Source: Clostridiales bacterium (GTDB lineage Bacteria > Bacillota > Clostridia > Christensenellales > Aristaeellaceae). From it: a stretch of DNA of 64,000 nucleotides. The translations under genes and the position numbers were made by a program. Under the pieces are notes generated by a model that was given only the letters and a program-made list of their open reading frames with translations, was not told where the DNA came from and made no database searches. Positions 16,891 through 34,378 of the stretch are shown here, in pieces; within the stretch, counting starts at the first letter, position 1, and each line of letters begins with the position of its first letter. Where the stretch lies: NCBI GenBank assembly GCA_015056055.1, contig SVHC01000010.1, forward strand, positions 4,385 through 68,384, read 5' to 3'.

Positions 16891-17105
16891 ACGTTGATTC
16901 CTCCAGTTCCGGAAGAGCTTCCTATAGAGAAGTGTTCCGGTATATACAAATACAGTTACCTATAGTATACTTGAAACGGTAGAAAATGTAAACTTATTTT
17001 TTGAAGGAATTATAGATTCCTTCATACAAGAACCAAGTGTAATTTGCTTTGGCTTTTTTGAAATTGGAACAGGAATGTTAAAAATGATAAAAGATGAAAA
17101 AAGTA

Positions 17106-17134
17106 TTGCAAATTGATGCAGAATTTGGTAATAT
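17106..17134 (+). promoter_or_regulatory. sigma-A promoter (extended -10) driving the riboswitch-adhesin transcript
   Basis: TTGCAA (17106-17111), a 17-nt spacer, then TGgTAATAT (17126-17134). Confidence 0.6.
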
Positions 17135-17274
17135 ATTACCCGAGAGATACCATTTCTTACTACTGCTTGAAGAAGGGAGGTTTTTTACTGTTTGCACTCC
17201 GGAAGACACCAGAGCGTCCGAAGGTTTGCAAAAGGACAAGAATCTGCTTTTTTAACCCATACTGTAGAGAGAAA

Positions 17275-17360
17275 TACTGAAAAGGGCAAACCATTCGAAA
17301 GGATGGGGCGCAAAGCTAAGGGGCCTAAGGCCGCAAGGTTATGGCAGCCCGGCCGCCAAT
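17275..17360 (+). promoter_or_regulatory. c-di-GMP-I (GEMM-I) riboswitch aptamer
   Basis: AAAAGGGCAAACCAUUCGAAAGGAUGGGGCGCAAAGCUAAGGGGCCUAAGGCCGCAAGGUUAUGGCAGCCC. The core GGGCAAACCAUUCGAAAG..UGGG.CGCAAAGC is nearly identical to the Vibrio cholerae Vc2 aptamer as I remember it. The first hairpin is capped by a GAAA tetraloop. The second hairpin carries the 11-nt tetraloop receptor CCUAAG...UAUGG. Confidence 0.85.
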
Positions 17361-17398
17361 ATTTCGATTCTTTCCAATTATAGAGAGGAGAACGAAAT
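17361..17398 (+). promoter_or_regulatory. putative expression platform: hairpin sequestering the adhesin RBS
   Basis: ATTTCGATTCTTTCC (17361-17375) can pair with GAGGAGAACGAAAT (17385-17398), which contains the GAGGAG RBS 2-9 nt before ATG 17400. That gives about 13 pairs with one bulge. Confidence 0.45.
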
Positions 17399-17399
17399 A

Positions 17400-20240
17400 A
17401 TGGCAAACAAGTTTAAGAGAAGCTTCGCAATGGTTCTGGCACTGTGTATGTTGGTACTCGCATCTCCCGTGCATGCTCTGGCCGAAGAGAGCGTTTACCC
17501 GGATGACATTAACGCAGACCTGACTGTTGACCAAACCAATGGTACGATTGAAATCGTTTTCACCCCCGTTGATGGCGCAGAGGGCGGAGATCTGGAATGG
17601 GAATCCGATCTGACCCTGGGCGAAAATATTGAAACCGAACTGAGCGATCTGAGCGTTACTGAGGAAAAAACCGAAGATGGCGACACGATCGTTACCGAAA
17701 GCGCTACCATCGTTACCGAAGGTACGCTGGAGAACGGTGCAGACAGCAATGGTGAGGAAGTTCTTGAAGAGATCACTGACACCGAAGCTGAAGATGCGCA
17801 GCAGAATGGTGAAATAACCATCAATGGCGAGGAAACTCATGTTGAAATCACCACTACCGAAGCCGACGGTACCGTTACTGAAACGGATGTAACCGACGGT
17901 TACGAGAAGATCGAGTGGACCGGCGACGGCATCGAGAACATCGAAGACGTTATCGAAGGTCTTGAAGATCTTGAAGGTCTTGAAAACATTGAGCTTCCCT
18001 CTGTGGAAATCGAACTCAATCCCGGTGAAACTACCGAGCCCGTCACTGAAAAGAGTGAAGTGCCGGTAACCGGTACTGTTGGCGACGAAAAGGAAGGCGA
18101 AGACGACACTGAGTACAACTACACCGATATCACTATCGAAGTAGATCGTACCGTGAGTGCTGAGGCTTCCGATCTGGTAGTAACGCCTCCCAGCGCTACT
18201 AACAACTATGATTCTCCCGTTGATCCTACCACGGATACGGACAAGAACTGGGATACCAGCTCCAAGACTAAGGAAGATCCTCAGCGCAACGGCTTGGAAA
18301 AGCCGGCGCCCGGTTTGGTTGACCTTGAGGATGTTCTCATGTATGAACGCTGGCAGGAAGGCGACGATATTCCTGAAGGATTCCACGTTGGCGACATCAA
18401 GGAAGATGCAAAGGGTAATTACATTATCGCTGATGAGCCTCAGGAGATTCCCGAAGGATATGACTTCTTCCACTCCGGCATGGGTGAATACACCGACGCC
18501 GCAGCTCCTGTGTTTAAGTACATCGTTTACCAGCGCGACGAGAGTGGCGAAATCATTTACGGCGAAGACGGTAAGCCTCTTGTTGATGAGGAAAAATCTT
18601 ACCTGATGAATGGTTCTAATGGCAAAGCTCCCGAAAGCGGTATGGACTATCAGCCCGGTCAGCTCGGTTTGACGAATATCGTTTGCGAGCGCTATACGGA
18701 AGAAGATCTGAAAAACGACCTGATTCCGGAAGGCAAGAATGTCGGTGATATCAAGTATGATGAAAACGGCAAGCCTGTGGTTGATGAGGAACAGACAGAG
18801 CTTTTCTACGCCTACTGCGCCGACTTCCTGGTAGAAACAGACGCAGACGCTATGCACTGGTACAAGATGGAAAACCTGGAAGACAGTGGTCACTACACTG
18901 AGGAAGATGCTCAGAAGCTCCGTGCCATCGTTATGAATGGCTACTGGGGTGATGCAGAAGTAGGTACTGTGGAGCAGATTGTTGCCAATCTGACCGAGTA
19001 TGTCCAGGACATGCCTGAAGCCACTGATGAAGAGAAGGCAGAAATGCTGGACCTTCTGCTTGGTATGAAGGAGCATGAAGCTCTGGCTGTTACCCAGGCT
19101 GCAATTTGGGCTTATTCTGTTAACCGCACTAACACTGCCTATATGGATGGCAAGCTTCCTGCTGGTGTAGATAATGTTGAAGTTATCGGCGCCCAGAGTG
19201 CAATCAAGTGTTATGCGTACGATGCGAAGAAGAACAAGACTTCTTGGTATACTGAGTACAAGGCTGCTGTTGATCAGATGAAGGACGGCGGACTGCCCCT
19301 GAATGGAGCGTACGTTAATCTTTCTGAAGAAGTAATGGCAGAACGAGTAGCGGAAGCTATTGAAAGCGATGCCCGCATGGCTCTGATGTTTGAGTACCTG
19401 ATGAGCCTGGAAGGTATTCCGGACACCGATGAGGACGTAACCACGGTTATCAACGAGAACAATTTCATCGAAGATGACTCCCTGTCTCTGGTAATTCATG
19501 ACCGCGTTGAGGATCATGAAGACAACAAGGACGACAACCACGACAATGACGTTTACGACACCGACCTGAAGTTCAGCCTGGCTTTTGTTCCCGGCGAGAA
19601 AGATGAACTGCTGGTTTATCTGTATGGTATCGGCGATGAACCCATCGTACGCCGCCTCAGCGGTACGGGTAACGATGGTATCGAGGATATCACCACGGAC
19701 ACCGACGCAAACGGCAATACTGTTTACGTATTCAAAGATCTGCAGCTGAGCGAGAACTCCAATACGAAGTTCGACCTCCGTCTGGACGGCGTTCATCACC
19801 TGAATCAGGGCGTTTACCTCTACACTGCTCAGGGCGGTCGCCTTGCCTCCCAGACCTTTGTTGGTATGGCAAGCGGTTCGCAGGATATCGACATCACTGC
19901 GAGCATGACCATTAGCTTCAATGTAGATGAGAACAACCATGTTGTTGCAGAACGTTATTGGCACAACGAATCCGACCCCGAAACCACTCCGCCCACTAAG
20001 GATGAACCCCCGGTTATCTCCGAACTGCCTCCGAGTGAGGACGAGGAAGAGCCCACGCCCCCGGTTCGTTATCGTCTGTCCCGTAACGTAGGTCAGCTGG
20101 AAACCATCATTGATGAGGAAGTTCCGCTGGCTGAAGTTCCTGAGACCGGTGATATCTCCATGGTATGGTTTGCCATGGTACTGGTAGCTGGCATGGGACT
20201 TTGCATGCTGAAACTTGCTGAGAAAAAGTGCAAGGCATAA
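17400..20240 (+). CDS. sortase-anchored surface adhesin with a thioester (TQxA) domain
   Basis: Signal peptide MANKFKRSFAMVLALCMLVLASPVHALA and a very acidic D/E/T-rich N-terminal region. Thioester Cys context FYAYCADF and Gln motif LAVTQAAIWAYS. C-terminal sorting signal EVPETGD, then hydrophobic ISMVWFAMVLVAGMGLCML, then KLAEKKCKA. Confidence 0.85.
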   Translation: MANKFKRSFAMVLALCMLVLASPVHALAEESVYPDDINADLTVDQTNGTIEIVFTPVDGAEGGDLEWESDLTLGENIETELSDLSVTEEKTEDGDTIVTESATIVTEGTLENGADSNGEEVLEEITDTEAEDAQQNGEITINGEETHVEITTTEADGTVTETDVTDGYEKIEWTGDGIENIEDVIEGLEDLEGLENIELPSVEIELNPGETTEPVTEKSEVPVTGTVGDEKEGEDDTEYNYTDITIEVDRTVSAEASDLVVTPPSATNNYDSPVDPTTDTDKNWDTSSKTKEDPQRNGLEKPAPGLVDLEDVLMYERWQEGDDIPEGFHVGDIKEDAKGNYIIADEPQEIPEGYDFFHSGMGEYTDAAAPVFKYIVYQRDESGEIIYGEDGKPLVDEEKSYLMNGSNGKAPESGMDYQPGQLGLTNIVCERYTEEDLKNDLIPEGKNVGDIKYDENGKPVVDEEQTELFYAYCADFLVETDADAMHWYKMENLEDSGHYTEEDAQKLRAIVMNGYWGDAEVGTVEQIVANLTEYVQDMPEATDEEKAEMLDLLLGMKEHEALAVTQAAIWAYSVNRTNTAYMDGKLPAGVDNVEVIGAQSAIKCYAYDAKKNKTSWYTEYKAAVDQMKDGGLPLNGAYVNLSEEVMAERVAEAIESDARMALMFEYLMSLEGIPDTDEDVTTVINENNFIEDDSLSLVIHDRVEDHEDNKDDNHDNDVYDTDLKFSLAFVPGEKDELLVYLYGIGDEPIVRRLSGTGNDGIEDITTDTDANGNTVYVFKDLQLSENSNTKFDLRLDGVHHLNQGVYLYTAQGGRLASQTFVGMASGSQDIDITASMTISFNVDENNHVVAERYWHNESDPETTPPTKDEPPVISELPPSEDEEEPTPPVRYRLSRNVGQLETIIDEEVPLAEVPETGDISMVWFAMVLVAGMGLCMLKLAEKKCKA

Positions 20241-20320: not shown

Positions 20321-20358
20321 AGGGAGCGAAGGAATACCTTCGCCCTCTTTTTTTTTTT
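20321..20358 (+). terminator. rho-independent terminator of the adhesin gene
   Basis: AGGGAGCGAAGG-aatac-CTTCGCCCTCT followed by a run of about 10 T. Confidence 0.8.
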
Positions 20359-20424
20359 GCAAAAGAATGTTATACTATATAACAAGAGAAAGCGCCGGAA
20401 GGCGGAAAAAAGGAGTTGTCAAAA

Positions 20425-21369
20425 TTGAAAAAATTGCTGGCTGCCTTTCTGGCAGTGTGGATGGGCGTAACTGGTTTGGGCTGTGCGCTGTGTGAGGATG
20501 CGTATATTGATTCTGATTGGAGCAGCTATGAGGGGGAGATGATCTCTCAGTCTCGTGCTGCGGTACCGCTGCTGTTGGAAGCTACCGCTCCGGGTGTGTT
20601 GGTGGAAGAAAACGGGAAGGCACTGATCGACTATTCCAATACCGACGATGGATATGTGATGGTGCTGTATAAAGAGGGAACCAGCAAAAAGCTCAAGGTG
20701 CAGATCAAGGGACCTTCCACGACCTATACATATACCATTTATCCCGGTGAGTGGGCAGTGCTGCCGCTGACAGACGGAAACGGAAAGTATCAGGTCAAGG
20801 TGTTCAAGAATGTGTCCGGAAACTCCTATTCCAATGTGCTGGCTGCAAAGACAACGGTGGAACTTACCGATGAATTCGCACCGTTCCTCAGACCCAATCA
20901 GTATGTCAATTACAGCGCTTCCAGCCGTGCTGTGGAACTGGCGATGAATCTGACGCAGGGCATTTACCAGCCGCTGGGCAAAGTAGAAGCGATTTATAAT
21001 TACGTGGTAACGTATCTTTCCTACGATAAGGAAAAGGCCAAGAATGTCAAGAGCGGTTATCTGCCGGTGCTGGATGAGATACTGGAATCCAAGAAGGGCA
21101 TCTGCTTTGACTACGCGGCGCTGATGACGGGTATGCTGCGCAGCCAGGGTGTTCCCTGCAAGATGGTGTTTGGCTATGCGGGAAGTGCATACCATGCCTG
21201 GATTAGCGTGTGGAGCGAGGATACCGGCTGGGTGGATGGCGTAATTTTCTTTGACGGTACCACTTGGCAGCGTCTGGATCCTACTTTTGCTTCCTCCGGT
21301 AATCAGAGCGAATCGATTATGGAGTATATCGGCAACGGTAAGAACTATAAGGAAAAGTATTTCTATTAA
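20425..21369 (+). CDS. secreted transglutaminase-like (Cys-His-Asp core) protein
   Basis: Signal-like KKLLAAFLAVWMGVTGLGCALC. Transglutaminase core KKGICFDYAALMTGMLRSQGVPCKMVFGYAG..YHAWISVW....WQRLDPT. The likely start is TTG 20425, 9 nt after AGGAG; the track start 20416 abuts the RBS. Confidence 0.75.
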   Translation: MKKLLAAFLAVWMGVTGLGCALCEDAYIDSDWSSYEGEMISQSRAAVPLLLEATAPGVLVEENGKALIDYSNTDDGYVMVLYKEGTSKKLKVQIKGPSTTYTYTIYPGEWAVLPLTDGNGKYQVKVFKNVSGNSYSNVLAAKTTVELTDEFAPFLRPNQYVNYSASSRAVELAMNLTQGIYQPLGKVEAIYNYVVTYLSYDKEKAKNVKSGYLPVLDEILESKKGICFDYAALMTGMLRSQGVPCKMVFGYAGSAYHAWISVWSEDTGWVDGVIFFDGTTWQRLDPTFASSGNQSESIMEYIGNGKNYKEKYFY

Positions 21370-21425
21370 GCTGTTCAAAGTACCGAAGAGGATGGACCAT
21401 CCGCGGATGGTTTGTGGATGAAGAT

Positions 21426-22472
21426 ATGAAAGTGCTTGAATTGACAAATTTGGAAAAAGCTGATCTTTTTAAACAGTTGGCGCTGCTGATGCATTCCGGC
21501 GTGACTGCGGGAGATGGACTCAGTCTGTTGGCTGAAGGGGAACCCAACGAAAAAATCCGCGAGATGCTTGTGAAGATGACGGAGAGTGTAGATGCCGGTG
21601 CGTATCTCTCGCAGGCTTTTGAGGAAACCGGAAGTTTTCCTGCCTATGTGACGGGTCTTTTGCAGATGGGAGAGCAGGTGGGACGAAGCGAGGAAACGCT
21701 AACTGCTCTTTCCGACTATTACGAGCAGAAGGAGCGGATGGAGCGGCAGCTGGTCAGTTCTCTGACCTATCCCGCGATTTTGCTGCTTTTGATGGCTGTT
21801 GTGATCATCATTCTGCTCAGCCAGGTGTTGCCGGTGTTCAACGATATTTATGCTTCCTTAGGAGGAAAGCTTACCGGCGTTGCTGGTGGATTGCTGCTGG
21901 CAGGCCAACTTCTGGATAAGGCGATTCCTGTGCTGTGTGGACTGCTGGTGGTAGTTCTGGGCTTTTTTGCGGTGTTCTCTCTGCATAAGGAGTGGAGAAA
22001 GAAGATTCTGGGATTCTTCTCGGCACGCTGGGGAGATAAGGGTATTTTCCGCAAGATGAATAATGCCCGCTTCGCGCAGGCGCTGTCGATGGGATACACC
22101 AGCGGTATGCCGCTGGAGGATGCGGCAGATCTGGCTGCTCTGCTACTCAAAGACATTCCGCCGGTTCAGGAAAGATGCAAAAAATGCAGCGAAATGCTGC
22201 AGCAGGGCGAGGATCTGGCTGTGGCGTTGGAGGCGGCGGAGCTGATGCCTCCGTCTACCTGCAGAATGCTGACTCTGGGTCTGCGCAGCGGAACGGGCGA
22301 CAGCGTGATGGAAGATATCTCCCGCAGGATGCAGGAGGACGCGCATAATGCTTTGGAGAGTATTGTGGCTCGGGTGGAGCCGGCGTTGGTGCTGGTGACC
22401 TCCGTACTGGTGGGCGTGATTCTTCTGTCGGTGATGCTGCCGCTGATGAATATTATGACAGCGATCGGGTGA
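21426..22472 (+). CDS. type II secretion / type IV pilus platform protein (GspF/PilC family)
   Basis: Two T2SSF-like halves (LFKQLALLMHSGVTAGDGLSLL... and FAQALSMGYTSGMPLEDAADL...), each followed by TM segments. The start is ambiguous (GTG 21414 or ATG 21426). Confidence 0.75.
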   Translation: MKVLELTNLEKADLFKQLALLMHSGVTAGDGLSLLAEGEPNEKIREMLVKMTESVDAGAYLSQAFEETGSFPAYVTGLLQMGEQVGRSEETLTALSDYYEQKERMERQLVSSLTYPAILLLLMAVVIIILLSQVLPVFNDIYASLGGKLTGVAGGLLLAGQLLDKAIPVLCGLLVVVLGFFAVFSLHKEWRKKILGFFSARWGDKGIFRKMNNARFAQALSMGYTSGMPLEDAADLAALLLKDIPPVQERCKKCSEMLQQGEDLAVALEAAELMPPSTCRMLTLGLRSGTGDSVMEDISRRMQEDAHNALESIVARVEPALVLVTSVLVGVILLSVMLPLMNIMTAIG

Positions 22473-22476
22473 GAAC

Positions 22477-22791
22477 GTGAAGAAAAAAAGAGGATTGCAG
22501 ACGATTCTTTCCTGCGTAGTTATGCCCGTGCTGGCAATTTTGGTGCTGGTATGCTTTTTAAGCGCGGTTTCCAATCTGACAAGCGGGCGGCAGAGCGAGG
22601 ATATGGACAAGCTGGAAGATGTGCTTCGCCGCGCAGCGGTAGCCTGCTATGCTGCGGAGGGGATCTACCCGCCGGATCTGGAATATCTGCAGGAGCATTA
22701 TGGTGTGCAGATTGACGAAAGGCGCTATGTGGTGGATTACGTGGCGATTGCGGATAATCTGATGCCGGATATCACGATTCTGGAAAAATAA
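22477..22791 (+). CDS. small bitopic pilin-like protein (no Glu+5)
   Basis: GTG start 4 nt after the GspF stop. MKKKRG-LQTILSCVVMPVLAILVLVCFL, then an ~70-aa soluble part. Confidence 0.55.
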   Translation: MKKKRGLQTILSCVVMPVLAILVLVCFLSAVSNLTSGRQSEDMDKLEDVLRRAAVACYAAEGIYPPDLEYLQEHYGVQIDERRYVVDYVAIADNLMPDITILEK

Positions 22792-22815: not shown

Positions 22816-23298
22816 ATGAAAAAGAAAAACCAATTGGGCAGCGTGCTGGTTTTGCTGGTGTTTGCGGTGTTCATGGTCTCGGTTTTAATGGTGCTGCTCA
22901 CCGGTGCGGATGTGGTAGAGAAGATCCATAGCCGCGATCAGGCCAGCTATGACCACAGAACGCTGGTACAATATATCACTACCCGGGTTCGTCAGGCCGA
23001 TCAGCGTGGCATGGTGGATGTGCGCAGCTTTGGCGACGGTGATGCATTGGTGCTTACGGAGGAAATAGACGGAGATTTGTATGAAACTCTGGTCTATTGT
23101 TCCGATGGGTATTTGAGGGAACTGTTTGTGGAAGCGGGTCTGGAAATGGATGCGGAATTTGGCGAGGAGATTCTGCCGATTCAGCGCGTTTGTTTTCAGG
23201 ATGAAAATACCTATATCCGCGTACAGTTGACGCTGACAGAGGGAGAGGAAGAGGAAATGATTCTTTCTCTTCGCAGCGAGAGGGGGACAATGCGATGA
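22816..23298 (+). CDS. small bitopic membrane protein (160 aa), pilus/pseudopilus accessory candidate
   Basis: MKKKNQLG-SVLVLLVFAVFMVSVLMVLL N-terminal anchor. I recall similar clostridial proteins being binned as a DUF family, but this is unverified. Confidence 0.55.
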   Translation: MKKKNQLGSVLVLLVFAVFMVSVLMVLLTGADVVEKIHSRDQASYDHRTLVQYITTRVRQADQRGMVDVRSFGDGDALVLTEEIDGDLYETLVYCSDGYLRELFVEAGLEMDAEFGEEILPIQRVCFQDENTYIRVQLTLTEGEEEEMILSLRSERGTMR

Positions 23299-24093: not shown

Positions 24094-24124
24094 ACAGATT
24101 TGAGAAAAAAGGCAGGCATTGTAT

Positions 24125-25180: not shown

Positions 25181-25214
25181 AACTATCTTCGGTTTTATGG
25201 GTGTATATGGTAAA

Positions 25215-25701: not shown

Positions 25702-28254
25702 TTAGATGCCGACCTCTGCAGGTGCAGGGGGAGTAGATTTGGTCAGCGAGGGGATACGCAGTTCGATTTTATTGTTTTCCACCAATTCGGCAAAGATTTC
25801 AATAAGGTTGGGGTCGAACTGTTTTCCGGCCTCAGAGCGCAGAATGGACAGAGCCTCATGTACGGGCGTAGCAGATTTGTAATTGCGGATAGAGGTAATA
25901 GCATCGAAGGAATCAGCAATACAGAGGATACGACCGGTGATGGGAATGTTGGTCTGCGCCAAGCGACGAGGATAACCGCGGCCGTCGTAACGCTCGTGGT
26001 GAGAGAGAACGGCGGGAATAACGTAATCCAGTGAGGGAAGATGCCGGATGATGTTGACCGCATTTTCAACATGGCTCTTCATCACTTCGTACTCTTCTGC
26101 AGTAAGCTTGCCGGGCTTATTGAGGATTTCTTCACGGATGCCGATTTTACCGATGTCGTGCAACAAACCGGCTTCGCGGATAATCTCTACCAAATCGGAG
26201 GACATGCCTGCAGCCTTGGCAAGTTCAGCGGCGTAATAGGCCACGTTCTGGGAGTGCTGGAACGTATAATGGTCTTTGGCATCGACCGCTGCGGTAAGAG
26301 CGTAGATGGTACTGGCATGTTCATCGTAACCGCTTTTGTAAAGCGTGTTGCTGGGTTCTCTGCGGTGAATATCGGCGGAGTACATCTGCACGGCATTTTT
26401 ACCGGTGCGCTTGACGGTGTAAACGGTGGTATCGGCATTGCGATAGAGTTCCTTGGCGGAAGAAGCCATGTAGGGAGCAGCGCAGATACCGATGCTGGCC
26501 GTCATGGTACCGGCAGGTTTACTGCCGGCGAAGGAAGACGTGATATTGCTGATTTGTTCAGCTACGTTATCGGCCAGACATTTGGCGGAGTAGATATCAT
26601 AGCCGGGGAGAATCAGGGCAAATTCATCGCCTCCGATACGGGCAGCATAGCCGTTTTCGTTGACGGCAGATGCCAGAATGGCGGCAATACTACGGAGTAC
26701 GGCGTCACCTTCATTGGTACCGTAAAGCTGATTGTACTGCTTGAAATCGTCGATATTGATCAGGCACAGGGAAAGAGCGGTGTCCTTGCACTTTTCAAAT
26801 TCACGATCAAGAATATCGTAGAAGAATTTGAAGTTGAGCAGGCCGGTCATATCGTCCCTCTGCGCTTCTTCCACGGCTCGTTCGTAATTGTAGGCGTTCT
26901 GAACGGCACTGGCACATACGGTAGCAAGAGACTGCAGGAAACGAAGGGTATCGGGATGCTGCGAGAACTTTCCGTGACGATCGGGCAGAATCATGAAGCC
27001 TATCAGGTCACCTTCGTGATTCATAGGGATGAAGCAATCAAGCTGTTGGTTGATCAGAAGGGCTTTTTCCTTTTCCCAGAGGCTGCGATAGAGAGTTCTG
27101 CGGGAAAAGTCCTGGGATGTTACATAGCCATGCTTGTCCTTCAGATATTTGACCAACGGATGGGTGGCATCAAAGGAGAAACTCTTTTCTTCCAGAGGAT
27201 TGAGAGTGTGTTCAATGCGATATGTGCCGCCGGAATCACGGACAAGCACAAAGAGACGGTCTATATCGAAGACTTCCTGTGCTGTGTTGGTCATGCTCTG
27301 CAGGATTTCACTGACACTCATCATGTGAGATAGGTTTTCAGAAAAATGATTGAGAGCGTTGTTGCGCTTCTGATCCTTGCGAGAGAAAATCGCATCGCAC
27401 AGGGAGTTGATGGCCAGATACAGCAGGCCAATCAACAAAAAGAGGAAAACAGCAATGATCATCAGTGTGCTGGTGTAGCCCAAACCAACGTTCTGCATGA
27501 GAAAACGCTGGAGAACCAGAGCCAGATCTGAGAAAATCGCCAGACCGATGACGGCGGAGATGATTATATAATTGGACTTGGAAAGAAGGATGGTCATGCG
27601 GAAAAGCCGTTTCCGGTAAAGTGCGTAGAAAAGGAAAATTGCGTTGCAAACACCGGAGAGCATATCCATAGGAAGACCTATGAACATGGGCAGGGTAGTG
27701 AGCAGATGACCCATGACCAGAACAGCCAGACCACCCATTACAGGCGTCAATTGGCGCAGGGCGATGTGATTTCCGCGGCAATGACGCCAAGCCAGAATAC
27801 ACATTTGCGCCAAAGTAGGCACAATTAAAGCAAAGAGGAAATAAATGTGCCAATTGTAGTGATAGAGGAAGGTGGGAGTATCGCCGGTTCGAATGACTTC
27901 CGGCAGGGGAATAAAGAAATTGGTGAGGCAATTGAATACAAACAGTGCCAGGTAGAAGAACATCCAGAATTTGCGGCCATGGCTATTGGTTTCATCCAGA
28001 AAAGCCAGAACAAACTGATAATAACCATAGGCAACCATCATCATACCCAGAAGGGAAACATGGTGCCAGAAGTTGACATTTGGCCACAATTCAATTCGCA
28101 TGCCCAGCGAGCCGCCGTTCCACAAAAGCATGATGCCCAGAAGCAGTGAGAAGGAACGAAGAGCTTTTTCCTTGGGCTTGGAAACCAAGAAGGTCAGCAG
28201 AAGAAAGAGGTAGCAGAAGATGGAGAAGACGGCAATCCAACTATATCCATTCAT
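25702..28254 (-). CDS. polytopic membrane sensor with GAF-like, GGDEF and HD-GYP domains (c-di-GMP synthesis/degradation)
   Basis: About 300 aa of TM helices, then RIGGDEFALILPG (intact GGDEF), then HD-GYP motifs LLHDIGKIGI and HHERYDGRGYP. Confidence 0.85.
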   Translation of the reverse strand: MNGYSWIAVFSIFCYLFLLLTFLVSKPKEKALRSFSLLLGIMLLWNGGSLGMRIELWPNVNFWHHVSLLGMMMVAYGYYQFVLAFLDETNSHGRKFWMFFYLALFVFNCLTNFFIPLPEVIRTGDTPTFLYHYNWHIYFLFALIVPTLAQMCILAWRHCRGNHIALRQLTPVMGGLAVLVMGHLLTTLPMFIGLPMDMLSGVCNAIFLFYALYRKRLFRMTILLSKSNYIIISAVIGLAIFSDLALVLQRFLMQNVGLGYTSTLMIIAVFLFLLIGLLYLAINSLCDAIFSRKDQKRNNALNHFSENLSHMMSVSEILQSMTNTAQEVFDIDRLFVLVRDSGGTYRIEHTLNPLEEKSFSFDATHPLVKYLKDKHGYVTSQDFSRRTLYRSLWEKEKALLINQQLDCFIPMNHEGDLIGFMILPDRHGKFSQHPDTLRFLQSLATVCASAVQNAYNYERAVEEAQRDDMTGLLNFKFFYDILDREFEKCKDTALSLCLINIDDFKQYNQLYGTNEGDAVLRSIAAILASAVNENGYAARIGGDEFALILPGYDIYSAKCLADNVAEQISNITSSFAGSKPAGTMTASIGICAAPYMASSAKELYRNADTTVYTVKRTGKNAVQMYSADIHRREPSNTLYKSGYDEHASTIYALTAAVDAKDHYTFQHSQNVAYYAAELAKAAGMSSDLVEIIREAGLLHDIGKIGIREEILNKPGKLTAEEYEVMKSHVENAVNIIRHLPSLDYVIPAVLSHHERYDGRGYPRRLAQTNIPITGRILCIADSFDAITSIRNYKSATPVHEALSILRSEAGKQFDPNLIEIFAELVENNKIELRIPSLTKSTPPAPAEVGI

Positions 28255-29881
28255 TCAGCAGTTCCCCCTTTCCGACACTGTCCATCATGTGACAATTGAG
28301 CAAATCGTTGATTTCGCAGCTTTCGGCATTCATGGTACGAATTTTGGATCCGTATTTACGTTCGTAGAGTTCGAAGGTTCCGCACTTGAGCAGTGTGATC
28401 TTCAGCGGATCGATTCCCAGAATCTTCTTAAGATCCTCATAATCCTGATCCAGATAGCGGAAATAGATTCCCAGCTGATCTTGCAGCAGTCTGATACTGA
28501 TGGCGCTGTTGATCAGGTTGCTGCGCTGCAGTTCTACATACATGTGCAGATACGGTCTGTTCTGCTCGGTATATTCCTTTTTGGCTGTCCAAGAGGCAAT
28601 GGGAAGCCTGGACAGCTGAATCGCTTGTGTGATGGATTTTTCTGTGATGCGGGTAAATCCGGCGATATCAATAATCTGCGGAACGCGATCCACATACTGG
28701 AAGCGGGGAATGGAATTGCCCTCGCTCTCGCTTCCGATACCGGTACAGCGGAATACATCGCCTACGCGATAGCGGGCGAAGGCGCCGCCCTTAAATACGG
28801 TCAGTACGAGTTCATAAATACCGCCGGGGAGAACTTCATTCCAGAGAATGGTATGGGGCTGATAGTTGGGGTCGGCCAAGCTTCTGTCCAACTCATCTTC
28901 GGGAATAAATTCATAGAAGCAGGCGTCAGGGAAGAAATAGACACCTTCGCGGCTCCAGGTTTCGCAACCGATACATGTGGGTTCGGTGCCGGCAAAAATC
29001 TCCATGGGGGTAATGCCCCACATCTTTTCAAGATCGGCTTTGTAGCATCGATTGTCTGTGCCGGCGTACATGAAACATTTGAGATGGAAAAGGTCCTTGG
29101 GCAGCAGATCACGATTTTCTCTGCGGCATTTTTTCTTGGCCATAAGATAACGCAAGATCATTTTGGGGGAGGTGCCCAACAGCTTGTCTTTGAGACTGTG
29201 TCCGCCGGAACTCATGCTTGAAATGCTCTGACTGACATAATAAAGGACACTGCCCAGGCCAAAGAAGTATTCAAGACCTTTCTTCATGCCTAGTTTGAAA
29301 CCCTGCTTGTTGCGCTCTCTAAAGCTCATTTTTACCGCTTCTTTAACCGGCGGGAAAAACTCAATATCGATTTCATCTTCCAAAAGCAGGGGCAGAAGAC
29401 CGGTAACATAGGGCATCGGTGCCAGCGCATAAAGCATGTGGTCGGTTACACTGATGTCGAAATCACCCTTTTGACGACTGGTAGCCAGAATCAAGCAGCT
29501 GATGACATTGTGTTTGAACGTATCCAACATCGCCTTGGTATAAGGGGCTGTCTTGATGGGGTGGACGCCACCTTCCCATGTAGTCTGCACCCAAAGAACG
29601 GGATCGGCAGGCAGTGAGGAGGTCTGCTTGGAAAGCAACATGGGCGCGTAATCCTCATAAGAGGTCAGCGGCACCATTTCGCGGAATTCATTGATGGTAT
29701 GGGGGTATTTGCCTTTGAGAATGCTCTGACCGATTCCGCTGTTGGACCACAGTTCGATTTGTTCAAGCAGCAGTCGGTTCTGAATGCTCATGAATTCTTC
29801 GGAGGACAGCGTCAAAAAACCGCAGTATTCTTCCCAGATTTCTGCTTTGGTATATTCGTGAAGCTTTTCCTGGAATCTCAT
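28241..29881 (-). CDS. GH3-family-like (acyl-acid amido synthetase / adenylate-forming) protein
   Basis: Motif 3-like ARYRVGDVFRCTG (compare plant GH3 YRLGDVV). Motif 2-like IFAGTEPTCIGCE (compare YGSSE). The position of the P-loop-like SSGTT motif is degenerate (VQTTWEGGVHPIK). Size is 546 aa. The assignment rests on recollection of family motifs. Confidence 0.5.
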   Translation of the reverse strand: MRFQEKLHEYTKAEIWEEYCGFLTLSSEEFMSIQNRLLLEQIELWSNSGIGQSILKGKYPHTINEFREMVPLTSYEDYAPMLLSKQTSSLPADPVLWVQTTWEGGVHPIKTAPYTKAMLDTFKHNVISCLILATSRQKGDFDISVTDHMLYALAPMPYVTGLLPLLLEDEIDIEFFPPVKEAVKMSFRERNKQGFKLGMKKGLEYFFGLGSVLYYVSQSISSMSSGGHSLKDKLLGTSPKMILRYLMAKKKCRRENRDLLPKDLFHLKCFMYAGTDNRCYKADLEKMWGITPMEIFAGTEPTCIGCETWSREGVYFFPDACFYEFIPEDELDRSLADPNYQPHTILWNEVLPGGIYELVLTVFKGGAFARYRVGDVFRCTGIGSESEGNSIPRFQYVDRVPQIIDIAGFTRITEKSITQAIQLSRLPIASWTAKKEYTEQNRPYLHMYVELQRSNLINSAISIRLLQDQLGIYFRYLDQDYEDLKKILGIDPLKITLLKCGTFELYERKYGSKIRTMNAESCEINDLLNCHMMDSVGKGELLNEWI

Positions 29882-30471
29882 GATTCAACCTCCTTCTCGC
29901 CTTGATGACGAAGGTTTTGACATGCCAGACGGAGGCTGGCTTTTGTAGGAATCAGGAAGGGTGTTTCCTGTTGATAGCGTTTGTAATCGCAGAAGGTTCG
30001 GGGAAAGGTGATGCGATCCTGGAAGCAGGCATAAGCAAGGTCCATGAGGGAAAAGAACATTCCGCGGAGCAGCAAGCCATAAAAAGGAGCAGCAGCAAGT
30101 CCTAAAAAGAAAAATAGCAGGAAAAAAAACAGAATACCCGGATGGCGGCAGAGTGCGTAGACGCCTTTATCATACACACTGCGTCCATCCGTTTGCTTGG
30201 CGTAGGTTTCTTCGAAAGGAAGCGCGAAGAAAAGGCTGTAGATCAGCGCCAAAATTGATATAAACGCAAAAAAGATGAAAATCCAGTCTACGATACTATC
30301 AAATGCATTGATCCGGCAGGCAGCGTACAAATCCAACCCTGCTGCGCCGGCGAGCAACGCAGTACCCAAAGCGAAAAAGAATCGGGGAAAGCTGCGTTGC
30401 CAGGAAAAACTGTTAATATCATAGAGGAAGTAGAGGAGAAAAGCTGCAAGCCCCAAAGCCAGTGAAATCAT
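29878..30471 (-). CDS. ICMT/PEMT-like integral membrane methyltransferase
   Basis: Five or six TM segments and GVYALCRHPGILFFFLLFF (compare the RHPxY motif of isoprenylcysteine / phospholipid methyltransferases). GGAGGA RBS before ATG 30471. The track ORF up to 30705 overlaps the upstream gene and is an extension. Confidence 0.45.
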   Translation of the reverse strand: MISLALGLAAFLLYFLYDINSFSWQRSFPRFFFALGTALLAGAAGLDLYAACRINAFDSIVDWIFIFFAFISILALIYSLFFALPFEETYAKQTDGRSVYDKGVYALCRHPGILFFFLLFFFLGLAAAPFYGLLLRGMFFSLMDLAYACFQDRITFPRTFCDYKRYQQETPFLIPTKASLRLACQNLRHQGEKEVES

Positions 30472-30496: not shown

Positions 30497-32824
30497 TTAC
30501 TTTTTGTTTTCCGCCATAGATTCCATGCTGGGATCATAGAAAATGAACTGAGCACGGCCTTGTTCCTTGGCCACATAGGCAGCCGTATCGGCATGATCCA
30601 ACAAATCTTCGTAGGTATCGCCATCATCGGGATAAACGGCGGCACCGATGCTGCCGGACAAGGGATAATCGATGGTATCTGTGCGGTAGGGGGTCTGCAG
30701 CACATTGCAGAGTTCTTCCAGACGCTTTGTCAAATCAGCACGTTCCAGACCGCTGACGAAGACTACGAATTCGTCGCCTGCATAGCGGGCAACCACATCG
30801 ATGTGACGGAAGGTACCCAGAAGACGCTTGGCAATGAAGCACAGCACGTCGTCGCCGACCATATGTCCCAGAGTATCGTTGACCTGCTTAAAGTGATCCA
30901 GGTCAAAGAAGATGATGGCGCTGCCGGTTTGTGCACCCTTTTTGAGGGCGCTGCTGACGAATTGCTCAAAGTAAGTACGGTTGTAAAGACCTGTCAGCGG
31001 GTCGCGATTGGCTTTTTCCATCCAACGGTTGACCTCATTTTTCCAACCGGCCATGTTTACCAACGTACCGGAAATTATGTCTTCACCGCCGGAAGCGATA
31101 TGTTCGCAATGCATATGAACTTCCATCCACTCGTAGCGGGACTCGTTGGTATAAAAGCGCAGAGTATTCTCAGCCCAGCCTTCGTTTTTGCAGCAACGGT
31201 CCATAAGATTACGGAAATCCTGGCGGTCATTTTCATGAATCAGATCGGAATGAGCAAAGAGTGCGGAGGCTTCGGAAATAACCAGCTGACCGTAAAGAAG
31301 GGGAGAAAAAATATCAGAGAAGACTACGCGATCCTGGCTGACCAGGAAAGTGAACATGATAATGTTGCTTCCGGTGGGATGGGGAGCAATGTCGTTGGTT
31401 TGAATGGTGGGGGTATCGTTGGTTTCCACATATTTCAATTGCCCGTTTTCAAAGGCAGTCTTCTGGAATTCATCGACGGGCATGGGACGGAAGTAGTAAA
31501 AACCCTGAATCATATCGCAACCGGATTGACGCAGATACTGAACCTGGGAGGCAATATCGATTCCTTCGGCAACGGTATGAATCTGCAGCTGAGAGGTGAT
31601 TTTTAGAATCGCTTCTACGATATAGCGGTTGGCGCGGCTATTGTTTTCGCCGATAAAGAAGCTGCGATCCAATTTAAGTGTGTCAATGCTCAGTTCACGA
31701 AGGAGCTGCAGGGGAATAGCACTCTCGCCAAAGTGATCCAGAGAACATTTGAAACCGTAAGAATGAATTTCATCGACCAGGGCGCGCAGCCTTTGCGGCT
31801 TTTCAAAAAGAATGGGTTCGCTCAGTTCAAATTCCAGATATTCCGGTGCGACGCGATACTTCTGAGCAATACGGTTATAGGGCTCCAGAAAGTGGTCATG
31901 TTCCAGTGTTTCCAGAGACAGATTGACGGAAATCGGGCAGGGGCTCATGCCCAACTGCTTCCACTGTGCCATTTTGCTGCAAACTACTTCGAAAAGATAT
32001 TGATCAAAGCGGTGAATAAGTCTGTATTCCTCCAGAAGCGGAACAAACATTTCAGGAGTAAGCAGACCGCGCTGCGGATGACGCCAGCGAACCAACGCTT
32101 CTGCGCCTACGATACGACCGTCGCCCAGGCGAACCTTGGGCTGCATATAGACAAGAAAATCACCGTTAGCCAAGGAACGATCCATCTGTTCAATCAGTTC
32201 CCAACGGTGGATGGCTTTTTCATCGGTAGGGTTGTTGTGATAAAAACGGAAACGGGGCGCATTTTTTTCCATGTCCAACATCTGCAGCGCTTTTTCCTGC
32301 ATATCGCTGAAAGGCTCGGAAGTGGTAGAGGGAAGATAAGCGCCGAAAATCAGATCCATATGATAGGGAATTTTACGCTGAATATTAAATTGATTGATGC
32401 TTTCATAAATTCGCAGCAGGCGGGCACGGATAGCATCTTCCTGACGATTTTTAATCAGAAAACACAATGTACCGCCACTCAGTCGAGCCGCGGCTTCAGA
32501 GGAACTCAGCGAAGTACGCAGAATACGGGCGATATAGAACAGAACCTGGTCGCTTTTTGCGCTGCCAAAGGTGTGGACAATCTGCCGCCAGTTTTTCAGC
32601 TCCATGACTACAACGGCATGGTGAGGTGTGTTGCTGCTGAAATATTGCAAAGCAACACGCCTTAATCCCTCACTATTCAGAAGACCGGTTACAGAATCGG
32701 AAAGGGCGCGGGATTGCAACCGCTTGATGCGGCGGATATATATCAGCATAACAATGACTGTCAGCACAAACAGGACTGACAGGGCGAAAACCCACTGAGA
32801 AGGAGTAAAAAGAGGGCTATTCAC
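30497..32824 (-). CDS. membrane-anchored degenerate-GGDEF / EAL / PAS-like / GGDEF(AGDEF) protein
   Basis: N-terminal TM WVFALSVLFVLTVIVMLIYI. The first cyclase-like domain has RLSGGTLCFLI in place of GGDEF. EAL domain: GAEALVRW..., LDHFGES. C-terminal RYAGDEFVVFV. Confidence 0.8.
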   Translation of the reverse strand: MNSPLFTPSQWVFALSVLFVLTVIVMLIYIRRIKRLQSRALSDSVTGLLNSEGLRRVALQYFSSNTPHHAVVVMELKNWRQIVHTFGSAKSDQVLFYIARILRTSLSSSEAAARLSGGTLCFLIKNRQEDAIRARLLRIYESINQFNIQRKIPYHMDLIFGAYLPSTTSEPFSDMQEKALQMLDMEKNAPRFRFYHNNPTDEKAIHRWELIEQMDRSLANGDFLVYMQPKVRLGDGRIVGAEALVRWRHPQRGLLTPEMFVPLLEEYRLIHRFDQYLFEVVCSKMAQWKQLGMSPCPISVNLSLETLEHDHFLEPYNRIAQKYRVAPEYLEFELSEPILFEKPQRLRALVDEIHSYGFKCSLDHFGESAIPLQLLRELSIDTLKLDRSFFIGENNSRANRYIVEAILKITSQLQIHTVAEGIDIASQVQYLRQSGCDMIQGFYYFRPMPVDEFQKTAFENGQLKYVETNDTPTIQTNDIAPHPTGSNIIMFTFLVSQDRVVFSDIFSPLLYGQLVISEASALFAHSDLIHENDRQDFRNLMDRCCKNEGWAENTLRFYTNESRYEWMEVHMHCEHIASGGEDIISGTLVNMAGWKNEVNRWMEKANRDPLTGLYNRTYFEQFVSSALKKGAQTGSAIIFFDLDHFKQVNDTLGHMVGDDVLCFIAKRLLGTFRHIDVVARYAGDEFVVFVSGLERADLTKRLEELCNVLQTPYRTDTIDYPLSGSIGAAVYPDDGDTYEDLLDHADTAAYVAKEQGRAQFIFYDPSMESMAENKK

Positions 32825-33084
32825 TGTATTTTTTCCTCACATATTGTAGGCGTTTATGGCATGAAAAGCAGCAAATTTATGAATCTAAATTTGAAGATAC
32901 TAAATTTATTTTATTATATCACGAATTTATTGCTACTTCAACATGAATGGACGATATTTTGTTCAATAATTTTGATGTTTTCTGTTGTGTTTTTAAGGGA
33001 CAGAATGTATAATGCATATAGTGTTTCAAAAGATTTTAGGTTGTGATTGGAACCTTAATTAAAAAACAATTGGGGAGGAGTTCG

Positions 33085-34185
33085 ATGAGAAAGATTTTGA
33101 AGGTTGTTTTGCTGCTGACGCTGGTAGTCGGTTTGGTCTTCGGTGGCAAAAGTTTGTTGGATGATGTAAGCAGCGGACGGGATAATGACATGGCCAGAGA
33201 ATTGGCGCGAGGCGGCAGGACAACGGCAGCGCCTACTGAAGCTCCCACTGAAGCTCCTACGGCAGCGCCCACCGAAGCTCCTACGGCAGCTCCCACTGAA
33301 GCTCCTACGGCAGCGCCCACCGAAGCCCCTACGGCAGCGCCCACCGAAGCTCCTACGGCAGCGCCCACTGAAGCTCCTACGGCAGCGCCCACCGAAGCCC
33401 CTACGGCTGCGCCCACCGAAGCTCCCACGGCAGCGCCCACTGAAGCTCCTACGGCTGCGCCCACCGAAGCTCCCACGGCAGCGCCCACTGAAGCTCCTAC
33501 GCCTGTGCCTACGGTTAAACCCACCGAGGTTCCCACACCTGCGGCAACGCAGAAGACAAGAGCAGATCTTACGCATAGTGACCCGATAGTCATGGAACTT
33601 CTTGCTATGGATCTGGATGTGCTTAGGGAATACAATCCGGAAGTTGTTGGTTGGGTATTCATTCCCGATACGGCGATTGACTATCCCATGGTACAGGGTG
33701 CTGATAACGACTTCTATTTGAATCACACATGGATGAAGGATGAAAACAACGCAGGTGCGATTTTCATGGAAGCGGAAAATTCCCTGGATATGAGCGATTT
33801 CAATACCATTATTTACGGTCACAACATGAGAAATGGAGCCATGTTCAGTGATCTGAACAAGTATCAGAGTCGCAGCTATATGGCCGATCATCCTTATGCA
33901 TATGTGCTTACTGACAATGGCGTCTATCGCTATGATCTGTATGCTACTTACAAGGCAGGCGTGCGTTCCATCACCTATGCCATGAAGATTCAGACTGAAA
34001 AGAAGAGGATGGAACTGATCAATTTCATTGACAACTATTCGCAGGTCACTATGGATATAGCCCCCGGTGTCGACGATCATATCCTGACGCTGTCGACTTG
34101 TTCCGGTGTAGGTCAGCCCAATCGCCGCGTGGTTATTGGAATTTTCAATGCGGAAGGATCCTGTCTAATTAATCCCTTGGAATAA
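33085..34185 (+). CDS. srtB: class B sortase with N-terminal TM anchor and long APTEAPTA repeat stalk
   Basis: MRKILKVVLLLTLVVGLVFGG anchor, then a 92-aa repeat stalk. Catalytic domain: PDTAIDYPMVQGADNDFYLNH, IIYGHNMRNGAMFSDL, LTLSTCS...RRVV. GGGGAGGAG RBS. Confidence 0.8.
   Translation: MRKILKVVLLLTLVVGLVFGGKSLLDDVSSGRDNDMARELARGGRTTAAPTEAPTEAPTAAPTEAPTAAPTEAPTAAPTEAPTAAPTEAPTAAPTEAPTAAPTEAPTAAPTEAPTAAPTEAPTAAPTEAPTAAPTEAPTPVPTVKPTEVPTPAATQKTRADLTHSDPIVMELLAMDLDVLREYNPEVVGWVFIPDTAIDYPMVQGADNDFYLNHTWMKDENNAGAIFMEAENSLDMSDFNTIIYGHNMRNGAMFSDLNKYQSRSYMADHPYAYVLTDNGVYRYDLYATYKAGVRSITYAMKIQTEKKRMELINFIDNYSQVTMDIAPGVDDHILTLSTCSGVGQPNRRVVIGIFNAEGSCLINPLE
33226..33501 (+). repeat. 11.5 tandem copies of a 24-bp unit (GCAGCGCCCACCGAAGCTCCTACG-like) encoding (AAPTEAPT)n
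   Basis: Read directly from the sequence. The copies differ only at a few synonymous positions. Confidence 0.9.
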
Positions 34186-34200
34186 AAATCCGGAATGAAA

Positions 34201-34234
34201 ATGCCTCTCTCATTGTTGAGGGAGGCATTTTTCT
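34201..34234 (+). terminator. rho-independent terminator of srtB
   Basis: ATGCCTCTCTC-attgtt-GAGGGAGGCAT followed by TTTTCT. Confidence 0.75.
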
Positions 34235-34378
34235 ATCTTCTATATGTCGAACTTGGCTGTAGTTACATAATACGCGCCAAATGGCGGTGTGAAACGGCAT
34301 CTTTTTCAGAATGGCCCTTTAATAATTGCCTGCTGATGAGGGGCATAGAAATGTCCCGCCTTTCGACTTCTTGTTTTG

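Follow-up and report, generated by a model that had tools for sequence, protein, structure and literature searches.

A Clostridiales locus that combines an adhesin, a pilus-like operon, a sortase and c-di-GMP enzymes

Why do a riboswitch-preceded adhesin, a pilus-like operon, enzymes for the turnover of c-di-GMP (cyclic diguanosine monophosphate) and a sortase stand side by side within 17 kb of one bacterial genome? The question is raised by positions 16965-34236 of a 64,000-nucleotide stretch of DNA from a Clostridiales bacterium (metagenome-assembled genome, assembly GCA_015056055.1, contig SVHC01000010.1, positions 4,385 to 68,384), which is called the window below and is numbered from its first letter. 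The region consists of four transcription units: the adhesin gene; the pilus-like operon, encoding a transglutaminase-like protein (TGase), a GspF-type platform protein, four small proteins and a PilT-type ATPase; a c-di-GMP operon that includes a cassette of a GH3-family enzyme and a putative methyltransferase (MT); and srtB, encoding a class B sortase. On balance, and with some reservation, we favour the reading of a composite cell-surface locus whose four transcription units are held together by shared c-di-GMP control; functional roles, here and below, are deduced from sequence and synteny. Every component listed in a preliminary description of this DNA was found where that description had placed it (Rfam, Pfam, TIGRFAM and translations). 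Its remark that the combination was not known as described agrees with our reading of the literature, in which no match was found for the combination of TGase, PilT and sortase.

Recurrence of the gene neighbourhood

Related loci were collected by a scan for PilT in one genome per species, and a metagenome scan with the family of the 104-aa protein of the pilus-like operon added further loci. Dereplication at 90% nucleotide identity resulted in 34 lineages (denoted by L and a number) with loci of at least 8 kb. The TGase gene is adjacent to the GspF gene in 32 of the 34 lineages. A sortase is encoded within 10 kb in 14 lineages, a regulator of about 400 aa with winged-helix, BTAD and GGDEF-like domains in 13, a GGDEF, EAL or HD-GYP enzyme in 8, the riboswitch-adhesin cassette with its c-di-GMP-I riboswitch in 6, and the GH3/MT cassette in 5; at least one c-di-GMP-linked element of any kind is found in 21 of the 34. 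Canonical PilT loci obtained in the PilT scan, which served as controls, contain a sortase in 0 of 60 cases (0 of 18 within Bacillota) and c-di-GMP enzymes in 2 of 60. The resulting Fisher p-values (8e-8 for sortases, 14/34 vs 0/60; 3e-10 for c-di-GMP elements, 21/34 vs 2/60) are indicative only, as the control loci differ in taxonomy and the counts are without phylogenetic correction.

The unit of TGase, GspF, four small proteins and PilT is an ancient conserved operon. It is found in ten further species, with PilT proteins 52-72% identical to that of the window, and none of these ten has the GH3 cassette. The neighbours of the operon recur in a variety of arrangements. For example, in lineages L107, L101, L100 and L117 PilT is followed by a riboswitch and then by a surface protein of 1184 to more than 2176 aa; in L107 and L101 this protein ends in APKTG and is followed by SrtB. 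A sortase is encoded directly after PilT on the same strand in L148, L132 and L146, and before TGase in L006, L122 and L127. In L123 the TGase gene comes after genes for two LPxTG proteins and a sortase, and in L003 the genes for SrtB and a VPQTG protein are convergent with PilT. Lineage L088 has, in this order, an orthologous cassette, a c-di-GMP-I riboswitch, a TGase homologue (33% identity), a BTAD regulator and a sortase. Because orders and orientations differ between lineages, these arrangements point to several independent rearrangements, and hence to selection for linkage. The gene-neighbourhood search, proposed as a check in the preliminary description, has two outcomes: the parts co-occur above the level of control loci, contrary to the independent occurrence named there as a refutation, and the exact 17-kb order is confined to one clade. 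The former supports the view that the parts are linked above chance and would form a real, functionally linked module.

The clade with the exact 17-kb arrangement comprises relatives whose GH3 proteins are at least about 80% identical. Relatives with GH3 84-86% identical keep the complete order, namely adhesin-TGase-GspF-four small proteins-PilT, the convergent HD-GYP-GH3-MT-GGDEF-EAL operon and SrtB, together with the riboswitch before the adhesin. The genes beyond SrtB differ, consisting of an M13 peptidase and an adenine deaminase, of FGGY and SIS genes or, in the window, of DUF4304 and Na/Ca exchanger genes. In the sub-lineage L096, rplKAJL stands directly before GspF; what is retained there is the pilus-like operon together with the cassette and SrtB, whereas TGase, adhesin and riboswitch are missing. 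Overall, members of one genus-level clade share the block across three or more chromosomal contexts. In the window its flanks consist of housekeeping and carbohydrate genes according to family scans of the open reading frames (ORFs), the GC content is 0.47-0.53 across block and flanks, and base composition is uniform over the window.

Riboswitch, adhesin and sortase

The first and the last of the four transcription units consist of the following features.

17275..17360, plus strand: aptamer of a c-di-GMP-I (GEMM-I) riboswitch (Rfam RF01051, 73.3 bits, gathering score 35, E = 1.8e-12)
17355..17404, plus strand: expression-platform hairpin predicted to bury the Shine-Dalgarno (SD) sequence at 17383-17390 and the AUG at 17400-17402 (folding, covariation)
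17400..20240, plus strand: surface adhesin of 946 aa with signal peptide, acidic N-terminal region, thioester domain (TED) and VPETG signal (Pfam, translation)
20326..20353, plus strand: terminator-like hairpin with T-run after the adhesin gene (consensus scan)
33085..34185, plus strand: class B sortase with transmembrane anchor, (APTE)n linker of about 115 aa and catalytic domain with TLSTC (TIGR03064, 165 bits, cutoff 153.75)
34197..34242, plus strand: terminator-like hairpin after srtB (consensus scan)

That a GEMM-I riboswitch precedes a thioester-domain adhesin with a VPETG end was borne out by three observations: the RF01051 match covers model positions 1-87 of 87, the TED model scores 25.5 bits (cutoff 22), and the C-terminus reads VPETGD, 20 hydrophobic residues and KKCKA. 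The adhesin ORF starts 40 nt downstream of the aptamer. A second riboswitch was not found within 16.8-34.4 kb even at E<=5; neither the TGase operon nor the c-di-GMP operon nor srtB is preceded by one. In comparison with relatives, stem P2 of the aptamer shows a compensatory change from AUUC/GGAU to GGUC/GGCC.

The leader can form two competing structures. A putative stem P1, formed by 17271-17276 with 17361-17366, is 100% paired among 6 sequences and has 2 compensatory pairs (slid controls 39-56%). The sequestor hairpin, in which 17355-17374 pair with 17383-17404, is part of the minimum free energy fold (18 bp, -17.6 kcal/mol alone) and is conserved in two lineages, with 89% of cells paired and 2 compensatory pairs (slid controls 24-48%). 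Both tests comprise six leaders from two lineages, a small sample; the platform precedes unrelated passenger domains in the two lineages. Nucleotides 17357-17365 are common to the hairpin and P1, since the outer 5' arm of the sequestor reuses nucleotides able to pair with 17271-17279 in the P1 stem that closes the aptamer. If P1 is forced in folding, the inner stem alone is left (-5.0 kcal/mol) and the AUG is free. Because P1 and the SD/AUG sequestor compete for nucleotides and both are backed by covariation, we infer that the riboswitch of the window is a translational ON switch of class I. Without ligand, the 18-bp hairpin would hide the ribosome-binding site and the start codon of the adhesin; at high c-di-GMP, P1 would be stabilised and take over the outer arm of the hairpin, such that the adhesin would be translated.

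A second arrangement is found in L088, where a c-di-GMP-I riboswitch (9489-9574, 80 bits) lies directly before the ATG of the TGase homologue at 9587. Here the 3' strand of P1 overlaps the SD sequence of the TGase gene, and the element is therefore predicted to be an OFF switch, opposite in direction to the switch of the adhesin.

The thioester Cys of the adhesin is found in YAYCADF and the Gln in TQAA (translation). The TQXA domain model TIGR03934 (24.1 bits, cutoff 30.4) and LPXTG_double (36.5 bits) both remain below their cutoffs, and a sequence search of the PDB gave no matches for the adhesin. Its xPxTG sorting signal is the only one in the 64-kb window. Positional homologues in L082 and L085 keep YCID and TQ[AT]A and end in APKTG and PVITG, respectively. 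The sortase is, as described earlier, of class B; its translation contains LTLSTCS and the N-terminal membrane anchor MRKILKVVLLLTLVVGLVF, and translation truly begins at the ATG at 33085, behind a GGAGG. The gene is divergent from and upstream of the minus-strand c-di-GMP operon, and is kept at the same position in L082, L085 and L096. The (APTE)n repeat linker (33230-33580) is absent in the orthologues of L082 and L085, which have 282-283 aa. The adhesin would be exported and then joined to peptidoglycan at VPETG by the nearby sortase. Cleavage of VPETG by this SrtB is suggested because the sortase is nearby and because xPxTG substrates adjoin SrtB in L003 and L107. Two opposite-strand ORFs, 17325-19964 and 33055-34080, are without family matches and were rejected as genes.

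Pilus-like operon and c-di-GMP devices

The pilus-like operon consists of seven genes and a terminator-like hairpin.

20416..21369, plus strand: TGase of the Cys-protease fold, secreted or lipid-anchored (Pfam Transglut_core, E = 2.2e-22)
21414..22472, plus strand: GspF/PilC-type platform protein (two Pfam T2SSF domains, PF00482, E = 1e-44)
22477..22791, plus strand: 104-aa protein with N-terminal transmembrane helix and conserved CYAxEGxYP...YG C-terminal domain (translation)
22816..23298, plus strand: DUF4860 protein of 160 aa with pilin-like architecture (Pfam DUF4860, E = 4e-25)
23295..23693, plus strand: 132-aa protein with short basic leader, hydrophobic helix and conserved Glu, LALMEQLV (translation, 10 lineages compared)
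23662..24093, plus strand: 143-aa protein with conserved VGGSSLLVIFA N-terminal helix, start codon uncertain (translation, lineages compared)
24119..25180, plus strand: PilT/PilU-family hexameric ATPase (TIGR01420, 417.7 bits, cutoff 319.1)
25212..25260, plus strand: terminator-like hairpin with T-run after PilT (consensus scan)

All members named in the preliminary description are thus present; its term "pilin-like" for the four small proteins fared less well, as the canonical prepilin motif is absent and no PilB is encoded nearby. PilT, which has the motif AIRSLIRD, is the only secretion ATPase of the locus. The ComGA model reaches 125.7 bits against a cutoff of 300, the PilB and GspE models remain far below their cutoffs, and across the operon family exactly one PilT-like match is found per locus within +/-10 kb. 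No lineage has a PilB-type ATPase within 10 kb, although one may be encoded elsewhere in the genome, and the window ORFs scanned include no prepilin peptidase. For the platform protein, TIGR02120 and ComGB (123 bits vs 240) are both below their cutoffs. The TGase has its best PDB relative in 6G49 (E = 4e-5), and its homologues in L002, L003 and L004 carry an L-[AT]-G-C lipobox.

The four small proteins have 104-160 aa and one N-terminal hydrophobic helix each. None of them matches a model of the prepilin motif (G-F/MxxxE; TIGR02532-type), and in 11 lineages their N-termini are non-canonical: KAPLALMEQ, with Glu after a basic leader, VGGSSLLVIFA and, for DUF4860, a plain hydrophobic helix. Domain searches gave no family match for the 104-aa protein, whose family is defined by the C-terminal CYAxEGxYP...YG domain and has twelve invariant columns across 12 lineages; neither the 132-aa nor the 143-aa protein has a family match. 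The AlphaFold2 (AF2) model of the DUF4860 protein (pLDDT 88) consists of a 60-residue N-terminal helix (residues 3-62) and an eight-stranded sheet. A Foldseek search with this model gave nothing at E<=0.001; its top alignments of some length are weak and comprise the Thermus type IV-like pilin TTHA1219 (probability 0.85-0.91, TM-score 0.36-0.40) and the minor pseudopilins XcpV/XcpW, such that the designation as pilin-like stays weak. We found no mention of DUF4860 in the literature.

From this composition we conclude that the operon is likely to encode a divergent type IV filament-like system outside the defined subtypes. In view of its parts and its recurrent neighbours, it would most likely build a short type IV filament-like structure that acts together with sortase-anchored surface proteins. 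The operon is also present in L010, on a contig titled Candidatus Coprousia avicola (6115-11023 and 13120-18351), in a high-GC coding style; downstream of it, L010 encodes a response regulator with REC and HD-GYP domains as well as a hybrid histidine kinase with a Cache domain. In the window, the two convergent operons are separated by a 450-nt non-coding spacer (25251-25701) with two long hairpins at roughly 25555-25611 and 25637-25660; in relatives the spacer has 52-87 nt.

The convergent operon on the opposite strand consists of four genes and a promoter-like site.

25702..28254, minus strand: 7TM(HisKA_7TM)-GAF-GGDEF-HD-GYP protein of 850 aa with intact catalytic motifs (Pfam)
28241..29881, minus strand: GH3-family acyl-acid amido synthetase-like enzyme (Pfam GH3_M, 47.7 bits)
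29878..30471, minus strand: 197-aa polytopic membrane protein with ICMT/PEMT/sterol-reductase fold, the putative MT (gene call, profile, AF2)
30497..32824, minus strand: protein of 775 aa with transmembrane region, a degenerate GGDEF, an EAL and a further GGDEF domain (Pfam)
32913..32941, minus strand: promoter-like site TTGAAG-17-TATAAT with extended TG, upstream of the c-di-GMP operon (consensus match alone, 10/12)

As described earlier, a GGDEF/HD-GYP and a GGDEF/EAL protein bracket two further genes; of the latter, the supposed methyltransferase is recognisable at superfamily level only. The motifs of the 850-aa protein are GGDEF at position 541, HDIGK at 699, HHE at 752 and GYP at 760. 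The 775-aa protein contains EALVR, DHFGES in place of DDFGTG, AEGID in place of EGVE, and RHID-x5-AGDEF, which includes an RxxD I-site. The GH3 gene overlaps both neighbours, by 14 nt and 4 nt; its product, with 2354 homologues, matches GH3_M (47.7 bits) and the GH3 N-terminal model (24.1 bits), both with a cutoff of 23.6, and GH3_C with 19.7 bits is below cutoff.

As a single sequence, the MT has no Pfam match above threshold (PEMT 11.2 bits vs a cutoff of 25) and nothing significant in a PDB search. Its family comprises 719 members, obtained in a search of 1.84 billion representative proteins, with the invariant residues Y105, R109 and H110. A profile of 83 family members matches Ma-ICMT of Methanosarcina (4A2N) with E = 0.001 over 145 residues, almost its whole length, RHP motif included, and two members come near the PEMT threshold (E = 5e-5 and 1e-4). 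The AF2 model (pLDDT 94) likewise has 4A2N as its top Foldseek match (probability 0.99, TM-score 0.51, E = 0.085), followed by steroid and sterol reductases that share this fold. Because the matches include both kinds of enzyme within one fold, methyltransferase and reductase are not separated; a methyltransferase is plausible but not proven. A longer ORF of 275 aa (29878-30705) was rejected as the methyltransferase gene, as it overlaps the upstream gene and as a length of 196-197 aa is called both in relatives and in the source annotation.

The MT and GH3 genes lie side by side in every one of the 7 lineages sampled, in one of them as a natural MT-GH3 fusion (P0188, 692 aa; L091:7763-9841). 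The contigs of the distant MT family members P0168 and P0250 measure just 1.5-2.7 kb, where the adjacency is visible and the span is too short for c-di-GMP neighbours. A GGDEF-HD-GYP orthologue follows MT-GH3 in 4 of the 5 lineages with a readable downstream gene; in L088, L093 and L095 it is a full-length 7TM-GAF-GGDEF-HD-GYP orthologue (38-52% identity), and in L088 and L093 a GGDEF-EAL protein precedes the pair. In L093 (14986-20579) the cassette is followed by genes for VTC, DUF4956, CotH, a GT2-PilZ synthase and MBOAT, and an integrase gene lies before it; these neighbours are a different, putatively c-di-GMP-responsive surface output.

The preliminary description regarded the two bracketed enzymes as having no known place in c-di-GMP biology. 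Both enzymes are there, but their pairing has a precedent outside that field: the GH3-like OlsH forms N-acyl ornithine from fatty acid and ATP, and its operon also encodes the lipid N-methyltransferase OlsG (PMC12493201, PMC12971839). Judged by this analogy, the translationally coupled GH3/MT pair probably yields an N-acyl amino acid that carries a methyl group, or a hydrophobic conjugate of a related kind. The operon as a whole would set local c-di-GMP through the GGDEF-EAL protein and the 7TM-GAF-GGDEF-HD-GYP sensor enzyme. Because GH3/MT is tightly coupled to a membrane-sensor diguanylate cyclase/phosphodiesterase (DGC/PDE), one may speculate that the product is a signal, which the downstream enzyme reads in the membrane through its 7TM/GAF input; equally speculatively, it may be the output.

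A further c-di-GMP device is encoded in relatives of the window locus rather than in the window itself. The BTAD regulators of about 400 aa consist of Trans_reg_C, BTAD and a partial GGDEF domain, and are found, for example, at L003:4325-5560, L013:5150-6373, L006:3877-5067, L008:7345-8556, L002:2098-3372(-) and L088:10569-11768(-). They keep the RxxD I-site with the canonical 5-residue spacer, and in place of the lost GGDEF the active site reads SSSQY, SGSQF or AQNQY. An RxxD motif kept together with a lost GGDEF active site is typical of c-di-GMP receptor domains, as in PelD and PopA. The BTAD regulators next to the operon in 13 lineages resemble these two degenerate-GGDEF receptors in the kept RxxD spacing and the lost active site, and differ from them in that the domain is fused to a SARP-type DNA-binding module of winged helix and BTAD; binding is predicted. 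They are candidate c-di-GMP-sensing transcription factors, and we found no description of such regulators, with an I-site-keeping degenerate GGDEF domain, in the literature. The operon appears to be connected to c-di-GMP through devices that vary from lineage to lineage, the BTAD regulator being the commonest outside the clade, which strengthens the central idea of the preliminary description.

Alternative readings and known systems

Several findings weigh against a composite surface locus under shared c-di-GMP control. Within 10 kb, 13 of the 34 lineages have no c-di-GMP element and 20 have no sortase. In the window the pilus-like operon is without a riboswitch of its own, and a terminator-like hairpin lies between the adhesin and the operon. 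Searches of the locus revealed neither an assembly ATPase of PilB type nor a prepilin peptidase or canonical pilin, and the fold search with DUF4860 was without a significant match. The activity of the EAL domain is uncertain because DHFGES stands where DDFGTG is expected. The fused MT-GH3 gene P0188 lies next to CNNM/CorC and rubredoxin genes, without c-di-GMP genes. Finally, the regulatory directions given here are predictions throughout: class I c-di-GMP riboswitches of Clostridioides difficile are all OFF switches, and its adhesins and pili are under class II ON switches (PMC6200980), and the ON direction proposed for the window derives from a folding model and six related sequences.

Four other explanations were weighed against this background. 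The four units might be unrelated and adjacent by descent alone, GGDEF/EAL genes and surface proteins being common in Clostridia; the restriction of the exact arrangement to close relatives (GH3 at least about 80% identical), the absence of the GH3 cassette from 29 of the 34 lineages with the pilus-like operon and the fused gene without c-di-GMP neighbours all fit such a chance juxtaposition. We consider it improbable, since the pairwise links recur elsewhere in other orders and orientations, the enrichment relative to control PilT loci is strong, and the block is kept while the outer flanks differ. A mobile or recombination-prone genomic island, whose parts travel together by transfer and not by shared function, would explain that related species have the block in three or more chromosomal settings, as well as the two tRNA-Trp genes with shared upstream sequence that flank a 32-kb segment and the integrase gene before the cassette in L093. 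It is as improbable an account by itself, although transfer would be compatible with the favoured explanation: a compositional island is rejected by the uniform base composition of the window, no integrase, transposase or terminal repeat is found next to the block in the window, and the sub-blocks also occur separately and rearranged, to which functional selection fits better than a fixed element.

Two further explanations concern the operon alone. It resembles a comGA-GG set in its ATPase of about 350 aa, its platform protein of about 350 aa and its four single-helix proteins of 100-160 aa, and the ComGB and ComGA models align over their full length, if below threshold; a divergent ComG-type competence pseudopilus for DNA uptake, unrelated to adhesion and with incidental neighbours, is nevertheless unlikely. 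The ATPase passes as PilT/PilU (417.7 bits) and fails as ComGA (125.7 vs 300), no protein has the prepilin G-F-x-x-x-E motif or a TIGR02532-type match, no comE/comF was found among the window ORFs scanned, and the conserved partners are TGase, sortase, riboswitch-adhesins and BTAD-GGDEF regulators. Somewhat less remote, if still doubtful, is that the TGase is no filament part but the counterpart of C. difficile PPEP-1 or of Pseudomonas LapG, a Cys protease that releases or processes the adhesin at low c-di-GMP. LapG is a transglutaminase-like protease, the TGase combines a signal peptide or lipobox with a TGase Cys-protease core and follows directly after the adhesin in the window, and the riboswitch right before its start codon in L088, with the P1 3' strand over the SD sequence, is predicted to act as an OFF switch. 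On the other side, 32 of the 34 lineages show TGase linked to GspF-PilT, most of them without an adhesin nearby, TGase is absent from L096, which keeps SrtB, it has no Pfam match to the LapG-type family, and no cleavage site is known.

For the favoured composite locus, the closest known system is that of C. difficile, where the genes governed by c-di-GMP riboswitches include those for SrtB substrates and for type IV pili (PMC6200980, PMC7865049); the regulon members compared are Cdi-2-3/Cdi-2-1 (SrtB substrates CD2831/CD3246), Cdi-2-4 (pilA1 type IV pilus) and Cdi-1-12 (PPEP-1/ZmpI protease). Both systems have a c-di-GMP riboswitch directly upstream of a sortase-B-type (xPxTG) adhesin, in both, a class B sortase and a type IV filament (here filament-like) system fall under one signalling theme, and the effect of c-di-GMP on the adhesin is positive in C. 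difficile and predicted to be so here. The precedents invoked in the preliminary description hence exist, but they differ in the class of riboswitch: the C. difficile adhesins and pili are under class II transcriptional ON control (PMC6200980), whereas the window has class I with an SD/AUG-sequestering platform. In addition, the C. difficile genes are scattered and those of the window clustered; the pilus-like operon of the window lacks PilB, PilD and canonical pilins and carries TGase; no PPEP-1 homologue is present; and the locus includes a dedicated DGC/PDE operon. C. difficile already provides the kind of system, with adhesins, pili and sortase under c-di-GMP control; as far as the literature shows, the clustering and the predicted translational class I switch are new variations on it.

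Other systems share individual parts. The OlsH-OlsG-OlsI operon of Singulisphaera acidiphila (PMC12493201) likewise has a GH3-like ATP-dependent enzyme, with GH3 Pfam domains, beside a lipid methyltransferase. The window differs in lacking an OlsI-type alpha/beta hydrolase and in the position of the pair between c-di-GMP enzymes; its partner protein has an ICMT fold and is likened to OlsG by gene context alone. With type IVa pili and ComG systems of Bacillota the pilus-like operon shares a GspF/PilC platform, a hexameric secretion ATPase and small proteins with N-terminal hydrophobic helices, one of which has a conserved Glu and one a helix-plus-sheet "lollipop" model. It is set apart by a sole ATPase of the PilT (retraction) family, ComGA/ComGB models below cutoff, no prepilin peptidase among the window ORFs scanned, no G-FxxxE motif, and a TGase lipoprotein and the 104-aa CYAxEGxYP protein as partners. 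The Lap system of Pseudomonas fluorescens (LapD, LapG, LapA) also combines c-di-GMP, a surface adhesin and an extracytoplasmic enzyme of transglutaminase fold; in contrast, the window has no LapD-like receptor or LapG-family match, its TGase is linked to the pilus-like operon, and the organism appears to be Gram-positive with sortase anchoring.

To our knowledge, nearly all that is known of how c-di-GMP controls adhesion in Gram-positive anaerobes comes from C. difficile. The present locus would extend the same logic to uncultured gut and rumen Oscillospirales, with other parts and in physically clustered form; its compactness recommends it for cloning and for work in heterologous hosts. We found no description in the literature of the PilT-only, TGase-associated filament-like operon of the 34 lineages, nor of the GH3/ICMT pair directly upstream of a 7TM-GAF-GGDEF-HD-GYP gene, a conserved operon that offers a testable entry to the role of bacterial GH3 enzymes in Bacillota and to lipid-like metabolite input to c-di-GMP signalling. 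A bolder picture, which we put forward tentatively and regard as possible at best, combines these elements. An undescribed PilT-only branch of type IV filaments might display, expose or retract sortase-anchored adhesins through a thick wall, under three interchangeable c-di-GMP devices: a translational class I ON riboswitch, a SARP/BTAD I-site factor and, in the clade of the window, a private DGC/PDE cassette, with a GH3/ICMT lipid signal read by 7TM-GAF. If true, the latter would constitute a lipid-to-c-di-GMP signalling circuit.

A few observations concern the surroundings of the block. Two tRNA-Trp(CCA) genes, at 5954-6027 and 37987-38060 (both minus strand), bracket the 32-kb segment that holds the block, and about 100 nt of upstream (promoter-side) sequence is common to both. 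An ORF of 668 aa (14884-16890, minus strand) is divergent from the promoter region of the riboswitch; it has no significant family match, and its exact sequence is absent from the protein collection. An exact database look-up of the rhamnosidase ORF in the left flank of the window likewise gave no record. Farther to the right, the plus strand encodes a BspA-type leucine-rich-repeat protein of 1324 aa (58124-62098) with six LRR_5 units and without an xPxTG sorting signal, which is probably a surface protein.

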